From Escherichia coli (GTDB lineage Bacteria > Pseudomonadota > Gammaproteobacteria > Enterobacterales > Enterobacteriaceae), in the NCBI RefSeq assembly GCF_003334385.1, contig NZ_QOWN01000119.1: a stretch of DNA of 1,258 nt. One strand, written 5' to 3'. Of this stretch, positions 385 to 1,250 are shown in pieces. Under the pieces are notes generated by a model. It was not told the origin of the DNA. It saw nothing but the letters and a program-made list of their open reading frames with translations, and searched no databases. Numbering within the stretch: position 1 is the first letter of the stretch; every line of letters starts with the position of its first letter. Both the position numbers and the translations under genes were made by a program.

Positions 385-1250
385 CCGCCAGACTAAGTGA
401 CAGCCACACGGTTGTCAGCCTGTGTTCTGCTCTGGAAATACACCGCAGCAGTTACCGGTACTGGCGAAAACGACGCGATACGGTTAATCCGGCACGAGTC
501 AGGTTGTGCAGCGAAATACGCCGGGCGTGGAACCAAAGTCGGGGCTCTGCGGGCGCGCGCACTCTGGCTGAAATGCTGACTCAAAACGGCGTCCCGATGA
601 GCCGTTACCGTGCCGGACGTCTGATGAAATATCTGAACCTGAGCAGTTGTCAGCCCGGAAAACATCAGTATAAAAATGCCCGTCAGGAGCATACCAGCCT
701 GCCGAATCTGCTTGAGCGTCAGTTCGCAGTACCGGAGCCAGACCGGGTATGGTGTGGAGATATTACGTATCTCTGGGCAGGAAATCGCTGGTGCTATCTG
801 GCGGTTGTTATGGATCTTTTTGCCCGCAGGGTTATCGGCTGGAGTCTGTCAGCGCATGCCGATACCGCACTGATAAGCAGTGCCCTGCGGATGGCCTATG
901 AGACGCGTGGCCAACCCCGGGATGTCGTGTTCCATAGCGACCAGGGAAGCCAGTATACAGGCCTTAAATATCAACAACTTCTCTGGCGTTGCAGAATAAA
1001 TCAAAGCGTCAGTCGGCGGGGAAACTGCTGGGATAACAGCCCCATGGAACGCTTCTTCCGCAGTCTGAAAACAGAATGGGTGCCAACGAATGGTTACGCA
1101 GGCAAGGACGAGGCCCGGCAGCAAATTAATGATTACATATTGAACTACTACAACAGCGTCAGACCTCACCATTATAACGGTGGGCTGACGCCGGAAGAGT
1201 CAGAGAACAGATACCATTTTTACTGTAAAACCGTGGCCAATATTACTTGA
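73..1250 (+). CDS. IS3-family transposase OrfAB (transframe fusion via -1 frameshift at 333..339; about 392 aa) with DDE integrase catalytic core
   Basis: OrfA residues 1-89 joined to the -1 frame read from 339 ([13 protein letters not shown]...) through to stop TGA at 1248..1250. The OrfB part carries the catalytic D in WCGDITYL (759..761), D in FHSDQGSQY (939..941) and E in [13 protein letters not shown] (1047..1049), 36 residues after the second D, followed by a K seven residues later. This is the classic retroviral-integrase-like DDE(35)E + K signature of IS3 transposases. The ORF track's 504..1250 is the TTG-initiated tail of this frame. Confidence 0.88.
333..339 (+). other. Programmed -1 ribosomal frameshift slippery heptamer A-AAA-AAG (A6G)
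   Basis: The orfA zero-frame codons are AAA (334..336) and AAG (337..339), encoding K88 and K89, giving the X-XXY-YYZ phasing. The -1 frame (positions divisible by 3) is the orfB frame and is open from 201 to 1250. This is the same motif and phasing used by IS911 and other IS3-family members. Confidence 0.85.

Follow-up and report, generated by a model that had tools for sequence, protein, structure and literature searches.

An Intact DD(35)E Catalytic Core in a Complete IS3-Family Insertion Sequence of Escherichia coli

The codons at positions 759-1070 of the window, by which we mean the whole 1258-bp stretch of Escherichia coli DNA analyzed here, most probably specify active-site residues of a transposase, encoded by a complete and recently active insertion sequence (IS) of the IS3 family that is related to IS911 and falls into the ISCfr6/ISEc31 group. 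The probability of this reading is estimated at approximately 0.93. The window consists of exactly one complete IS3-family insertion sequence, and positions 759-1070 represent an ordinary, fully intact IS3-family catalytic core. The element is already known, being annotated in RefSeq and widespread in Enterobacterales. The catalytic site is a textbook DD(35)E+K site, the core itself has no novel reading, and the importance of its description extends little beyond correct annotation.

Architecture of the Element

All features described in this study are located on the + strand, with the exception of two antisense open reading frames (ORFs). The window is bounded by imperfect terminal inverted repeats. 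The left repeat (IRL, 1-26) starts with TGTAGTGGCACAC, having 5'-TG as its first bases, and is complementary at 20 of 26 positions to the right repeat (IRR, 1233-1258), which ends with CA-3'. IS3-family elements are about 1.2-1.55 kb long and have imperfect repeats with TG...CA ends, and the 1258-bp window agrees with this description.

Two overlapping reading frames were found between the repeats. The first of them, orfA (73-384), encodes a protein of 103 aa with an HTH_Tnp_1 domain (residues 4-77, E-value 3.9e-11) and a leucine zipper. By direct reading of the sequence, the heptad leucines of this zipper are L73, L80, L87, and L94 in both OrfA and the fusion protein OrfAB. The presence of an N-terminal helix-turn-helix together with a leucine zipper is a feature of the IS3 family. 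The second frame, orfB, is open from position 339 and extends to position 1250, including 303 codons and a stop codon at 1248-1250. The slippery heptamer A-AAA-AAG, a predicted site of programmed -1 frameshifting, occupies positions 333-339 and is in phase with orfA. The overlap of orfA (phase 0) and orfB (phase -1) with a motif of the A6G type inside the overlap is likewise characteristic of the IS3 family. Codons 1-89 of orfA joined to orfB result in a 392-aa OrfAB, and exactly this protein is already deposited publicly under the name 'IS3 family transposase [Escherichia coli]'. The RefSeq CDS at positions 73-1250 of the window is composed of two joined pieces and named 'IS3 family transposase, programmed frameshift'. 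An additional HTH-like domain, HTH_21, was found in OrfAB at residues 145-197 (window 504-662, Pfam E-value 2.3e-08). The orfB frame lacks an ordinary start, and for this reason the catalytic core would serve as a transposase only as a part of the -1 fusion OrfAB.

The orfB frame contains an ATT codon (330-332) immediately ahead of the slippery site, in the same position as the AUU start of OrfB in IS911. Initiation of IS911 OrfB at AUU is named in the title of a reference quoted in PMC3219604. The stretch ATATTAAAAAAGG around the ATT codon is the same in an IS911-family copy. Moreover, the entire frameshift window of about 50 nt (327-380, ATATTAAAAAAGGCTACCGCGCTCTT.ATGTC.GACTC.CTGAAC.GTTC), including the ATT codon and the A6G motif, is nearly identical to that of the IS911/ISEc52-family copies (loci L010 and L011, 691-744), whereas the whole elements are only 63-64% identical in DNA, with 56% identity of OrfAB. 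Judging by this comparison, conservation of the frameshift window points to a constraint beyond that imposed by two overlapping reading frames. The predicted RNA fold downstream of the slippery site (340-470) was no better than the folds of shuffled sequences (z = -1.23). A consensus fold of four elements at the frameshift region had one covarying pair and did not support a stimulating structure.

A weak candidate for the resident promoter, composed of TTGGCC, a 16-nt spacer, and TATTCT, is located at 19-46 and agrees with the consensus at 8 of 12 positions; its role is putative. No site at the threshold was found by a promoter scan of the linear element, the resident candidate falling below this threshold. 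Opposite to orfB, two antisense ORFs (393-692 and 849-1172, both on the - strand) encode 99 and 107 aa and have no sign of being genes.

Residues of the Catalytic Core

The codons for the catalytic residues were read directly from the window. The first aspartate (D1, OrfAB D230) is encoded by GAT at 759-761, the second aspartate (D2, OrfAB D290) by GAC at 939-941, and the glutamate (OrfAB E326) by GAA at 1047-1049. The glutamate is followed at E+7 by a conserved lysine (OrfAB K333), encoded by AAA at 1068-1070. After a reading of the whole window, the codons were verified with a script; all four are in frame 0, which is the orfB frame. The two aspartates and the glutamate lie exactly where the original prediction had placed them, and all the residue contexts quoted there around the catalytic positions were found in the translation. 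The motif name used in its title, 'DDE(35)E', should be corrected to DD(35)E, as D1 and D2 are separated by 59 residues and D2 and E by 35 residues.

Relatives of the protein were found by a search of 1.84 billion representative proteins. The resulting alignment included 87 representatives, that is, the query and 86 near-full-length relatives with 31-56% identity to it. D1, D2, and E were each found in 87 of the 87 sequences, and the lysine was found in 83. The spacing of 59 residues is kept in 80 of the aligned sequences and the spacing of 35 residues in 84, in agreement with the earlier description of the spacing as typical for the RNase-H-fold core of the IS3 family. A DD(35)E triad with K or R seven residues past the glutamate, located in a core of the rve type, is the arrangement known for this family and the one found in the window.

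Matches of the orfB product to known domains are far above chance. The Pfam rve integrase core was found at 735-1028 (E-values 3.4e-26 and 8.5e-26), covering strands 1-5 and both aspartates. The C-terminal part of the core, at 993-1208, was recognized by rve_3 (E-value 1.9e-12) and rve_2 (E-value 4.2e-08). With the orfB part alone as the query, the NCBIfam model NF033516 (transpos_IS3) had a score of 268.7 bits against a cutoff of 160. The check with the rve model, suggested together with the prediction, therefore succeeded for both aspartates, which are inside the match, but not for the glutamate, which is beyond the end of this match, in the adjoining rve_3/rve_2 region. Because the rve match stops before the glutamate, placement of this residue rests on the profile alignment with the avian sarcoma virus (ASV) integrase and on the structure model.

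Comparison with Retroviral Integrases

A search of PDB with the single sequence resulted in nothing at E-values up to 0.01 and in weak matches only (E-value 0.13). The profile of the 87-sequence alignment, in turn, matched the cores of retroviral integrases, including those of HTLV-2 (E-value 1.8e-5) and ASV (E-value 1.4e-3). In the profile alignment with the ASV integrase, D1 corresponds to the D of WQTDFT, D2 to the D of KTDNGS, the catalytic glutamate to the E of MVERANRLLK, and the lysine to the final K of the same segment. These three segments of the ASV integrase hold D64, D121, E157, and K164. In the profile search, D2 was also found opposite to the TDNG of the HTLV-2 and STLV integrases.

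The AlphaFold model built on the alignment has a pLDDT of 94. In this model, D1 is located in strand 1, D2 is the first residue directly past strand 4, and E shares helix 4 (residues 230-246 in the numbering of the orfB frame) with K. The predicted structure has the core elements in the order b1-b2-b3-a1-b4-a2/3-b5-a4, as in the retroviral integrase superfamily. The best Foldseek matches were TnsB, the RSV, STLV, HIV, and PFV integrases, and IstA, with a probability of 1.00 to integrases and DDE transposases. According to the model, D230, D290, and E326 are predicted to occupy the catalytic positions of the RNase-H-like integrase fold, with K333 on the same helix as E326. Since the alignment, the ASV profile, and the structure model all put D, D, E, and K in the catalytic columns, the earlier statement that no catalytic residue is substituted holds.

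The protein thus shares with the retroviral integrase cores (ASV, HTLV-2, and HIV-1) the RNase-H-like fold and a column-for-column match of D, D(35)E, and the K at E+7, at about 15-20% identity. Unlike the retroviral integrases, OrfAB has neither the zinc-binding N-terminal domain nor the SH3-like C-terminal domain; its N-terminus contains instead the helix-turn-helix and the leucine zipper, added by the frameshift fusion. No solved structure of an IS3-family transposase was found among the PDB matches, either in the sequence-profile search or in the fold search, and mechanistic detail still leans on retroviral integrases and other DDE transposases.

Relationship to ISCfr6, ISEc31, and IS911

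Two named elements, ISCfr6 and ISEc31, are close to the window; both are IS3-family elements with ISfinder names, from Citrobacter freundii and E. coli, respectively. A truncated copy labeled by the NCBI pipeline as 'IS3-like element ISCfr6 family transposase' is 100% identical to positions 748-1258. A full-length 1258-bp copy labeled 'ISEc31 family' has 92.5% DNA identity and 95.4% OrfAB identity to the window, differing at 94 of 1258 positions; its length, ends, slippery site, and catalytic residues are those of the window. For intact copies with 100% identity, the name in RefSeq is just the generic 'IS3 family transposase'. According to the ISfinder rule, an isoform shares with the reference entry at least 95% protein identity, at least 90% DNA identity, or both. 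Judged by the copies labeled by NCBI, the window probably belongs to the ISCfr6/ISEc31 group, in which it may be either ISCfr6 itself or an isoform. ISCfr6, described as an IS3-family element, is reported to have six intact copies in the STEC O121:H19 strain 51104 (PMC9397093). Neither a functional study of ISEc31 or ISCfr6 nor a direct assay of the present element was found in the literature, where these elements were met in inventories only.

IS911, the best-studied member of the IS3 group, shares its architecture with the window. The IRL of the IS911 family starts with TGAAGTGGCACAC, resembling the TGTAGTGGCACAC of the window, and the right ends are similar as well (...TTGACCACTACA in the window and ...TTGACCACTTCA in IS911). 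The positions of D, D, E, and K in the IS911/ISEc52-family copies are the same as in the window. The size of the target duplication for IS911 is 3 bp, as was seen for the copies of the window. Differences were also found: the IS911-family copy is 1249 bp long with an orfA of 100 aa, compared with 1258 bp and 103 aa here. Assignment of the window to IS911 as an isoform was rejected, as the DNA identity to one IS911-family copy is 63.2% and the OrfAB identity is 55.9%. The sequence comparisons therefore indicate an element that would work like IS911 but is distinct from it.

Genomic Distribution and Recent Transposition

A megablast search covered 5426 complete E. coli genomes and found the element in 2416 of them. 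The best match has at least 99% identity in 938 E. coli records, and in 1649 genomes, counted over all identity bands, a match covers at least 80% of the element. Genomes differ in copy number, with between 1 and 17 places each. Copies with at least 99% identity were found on plasmids of Escherichia, Salmonella, and Enterobacter, and plasmid matches were found in Klebsiella and Citrobacter as well. Additionally, copies with 96-97% identity are located at contig ends in a Citrobacter sp. metagenome-assembled genome (MAG) (locus L013, 1-141) and in Tenebrionibacter intestinalis (locus L014, 1-695). The contig-end copies and the plasmid matches show a spread of the element between genera of Enterobacterales.

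Eight copies with 100% identity were inspected together with their flanks. Six of them, each at a different site, are flanked by 3-bp target duplications: GCC, TAT, AAT, CTA, GCT, and GAC. A short direct target duplication of 3-4 bp is a feature of the IS3 family. Insertion sites of the inspected copies include melB, an autotransporter gene, tssC, and prophage genes. The practical relevance of the element would be that of an active IS, which disrupts genes such as these and travels on conjugative plasmids. For the melB insertion, the flanks rejoined with a single TAT are found uninterrupted, at 100% identity, in the intact melB of more than 4100 genomes. In comparison with the full-length relative having 92.5% identity, dN/dS is 0.03 for orfA, 0.07 for orfB, and 0.07 for the core alone, both ORFs being under strong purifying selection. 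The identical copies flanked by 3-bp duplications at many sites, the empty melB site, and the dN/dS values together show recent transposition of elements with exactly this sequence and purifying selection on both proteins.

The remaining two of the eight identical copies, one in a prophage head-tail joining gene and another beside IS621/cueO, have no target duplication, which is possibly a result of recombination between copies or of an adjacent deletion. In tssC, a compound arrangement was found (locus L012 from NZ_CP019250.1, 601-2045 of the locus) and is the same in five genomes: bases 1-187 of the IS are located directly upstream of a complete 1258-bp copy. This compound is 1445 bp long, has TTA on both sides, and looks like a product of a nested or one-ended rearrangement.

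The element could also be imagined as an inactive relic, in which the motif is kept by chance or recency and a defect is present in the ends, the frameshift efficiency, or the folding. The weak resident promoter, together with the promoter scan that gave no site, and the two copies devoid of target duplications would fit such a relic, but weak resident promoters are normal in the IS3 family (PMC3219604). Furthermore, fresh 3-bp duplications accompany copies identical over all 1258 bp at many unrelated sites, an empty site that matches one of the insertions exists, dN/dS is as low as about 0.03-0.07, and all the tested family features are intact, which makes a relic very improbable.

Alternatively, the window could be a non-autonomous copy moved in trans by the transposase of a co-resident relative of the ISEc31 type (92.5% nucleotide identity). 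The two lineages do occur in the same genomes, in one example with both annotations under one match, and their inverted repeats differ at a single position within 1-26. Contrary to this explanation, elements of the window type have a complete OrfAB under purifying selection, and a copy annotated as this exact protein is present in 8 of the 8 inspected genomes. Transposases of the IS3 family act preferentially in cis, as is known from IS911, which was also counted against mobilization in trans. Mobilization of any single copy by another one, in trans, is conceivable; as an account of the element as a whole, this explanation is highly unlikely. A domesticated, integrase-like host gene has a negligible probability, as it has nothing specific in its favor other than the occurrence of the rve fold in some host proteins, and the gene has terminal inverted repeats and target duplications on its flanks and is found at 1 to 17 places per genome, in variable locations and also on plasmids, with no single conserved syntenic locus.

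The preferred reading remains that of a complete IS with its own transposase. The original prediction of a functional transposase is well supported by the intact repeats, the DNA-binding and zipper regions of orfA, the A6G site, the identical copies with 3-bp flanks, the empty melB site, and dN/dS of 0.03-0.07. The catalytic motif, on which that prediction was built, is too little by itself, and the evidence for activity comes from populations of copies. Additionally, the prediction holds for the frameshifted OrfAB and not for the orfB product on its own.

Proposed Transposition Pathway and Circle Junction

The steps proposed here follow the pathway of IS3, IS911, and IS2, as summarized in PMC3219604. 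The weak resident promoter would provide an orfA-orfB transcript. In a minority of passages, ribosomes translating orfA would slip by -1 at 333-339, producing OrfAB. This protein would use its N-terminal helix-turn-helix to bind the inverted repeats and its leucine zipper to multimerize. The D-D-E triad with two Mg2+ ions would then cut the 3' CA end of one repeat, and the freed 3'-OH would attack the same strand at a point 3 nt beyond the opposite end. The product of this joining would be a figure-of-eight. Resolution of the latter by replication would give a circle in which IRR and IRL are abutted with 3 bp between them. The abutted ends are expected to build a stronger promoter, after which the same active site would cut both ends and the circle would integrate with a 3-bp target stagger.

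Candidate hexamers for the junction promoter were found at both ends of the window. The outward-facing TTGACC (1247-1252), located in IRR, is the putative -35 element, and CACACT (9-14), in IRL, is the putative -10 element. Joining IRR, a 3-bp spacer, and IRL puts TTGACC 17 nt ahead of CACACT. Both hexamers are also present in the IS911-family copy.

A search with a combined IRR+IRL query found no abutted IRR-IRL junction in the 5426 complete E. coli genomes. In the JGI metagenome contigs, no match was obtained to a junction pattern allowing a spacer of 1-5 nt. Because the circle is a transient intermediate, the absence of such junctions carries little weight. Two places matched the whole IRR+IRL query, with the ends 555-618 bp apart. 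Of the partial matches to the query in one piece, two were read and are IR-like flanking DNA. The DNA abutting two copies resembles the inverted repeat of the element itself (locus L018, 1591-1620; locus L017, 1501-1527), and this resemblance explains the one-piece matches to the artificial query. In locus L018, ATTGCAGTGGATCACAAAATCAGGACACC is located directly after IRR. IS911 has a preference for insertion next to IR-like sequences, and by analogy the IR-like DNA beside the copies may reflect insertions of this kind.

Similarity of the orfA Start Region to the Rfam isrC Family

A match to the Rfam family isrC (RF01387, 'Hfq binding RNA') was found at 69-191. The match covers the whole 123-position model; its score is 150.4 bits, compared with 39 for the gathering score. 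This stretch corresponds to the last 4 nt of the leader and the first 119 nt of orfA. IsrC was described as a 288-nt island sRNA of S. Typhimurium encoded between envF and msgA (PMC2330248). In strain LT2, it corresponds to 1329145-1329432. No paper linking IsrC to an IS was found. The 'isrC' upstream of flu in E. coli K-12 is an unrelated RNA of the same name, with no similarity to the window.

Among the species-representative genomes, a 23-mer from the isrC-matching stretch was found only in the Citrobacter MAG and in Tenebrionibacter, in contigs ending inside the IS, and the isrC locus of Salmonella was not among the matches. A partial OrfA from Salmonella is located at a contig end, its context being uninformative. 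The sequence similarity suggests that the Salmonella island sRNA IsrC may be the transcript of a remnant element of this family. A regulatory role following from such an origin is rather doubtful. If IsrC were indeed a transcript of an IS remnant, Hfq may bind the leader and start region of orfA, controlling translation of the transposase of an element of the IS3 family. Another possibility would be a regulatory function of the IS leader as an RNA acting in trans.
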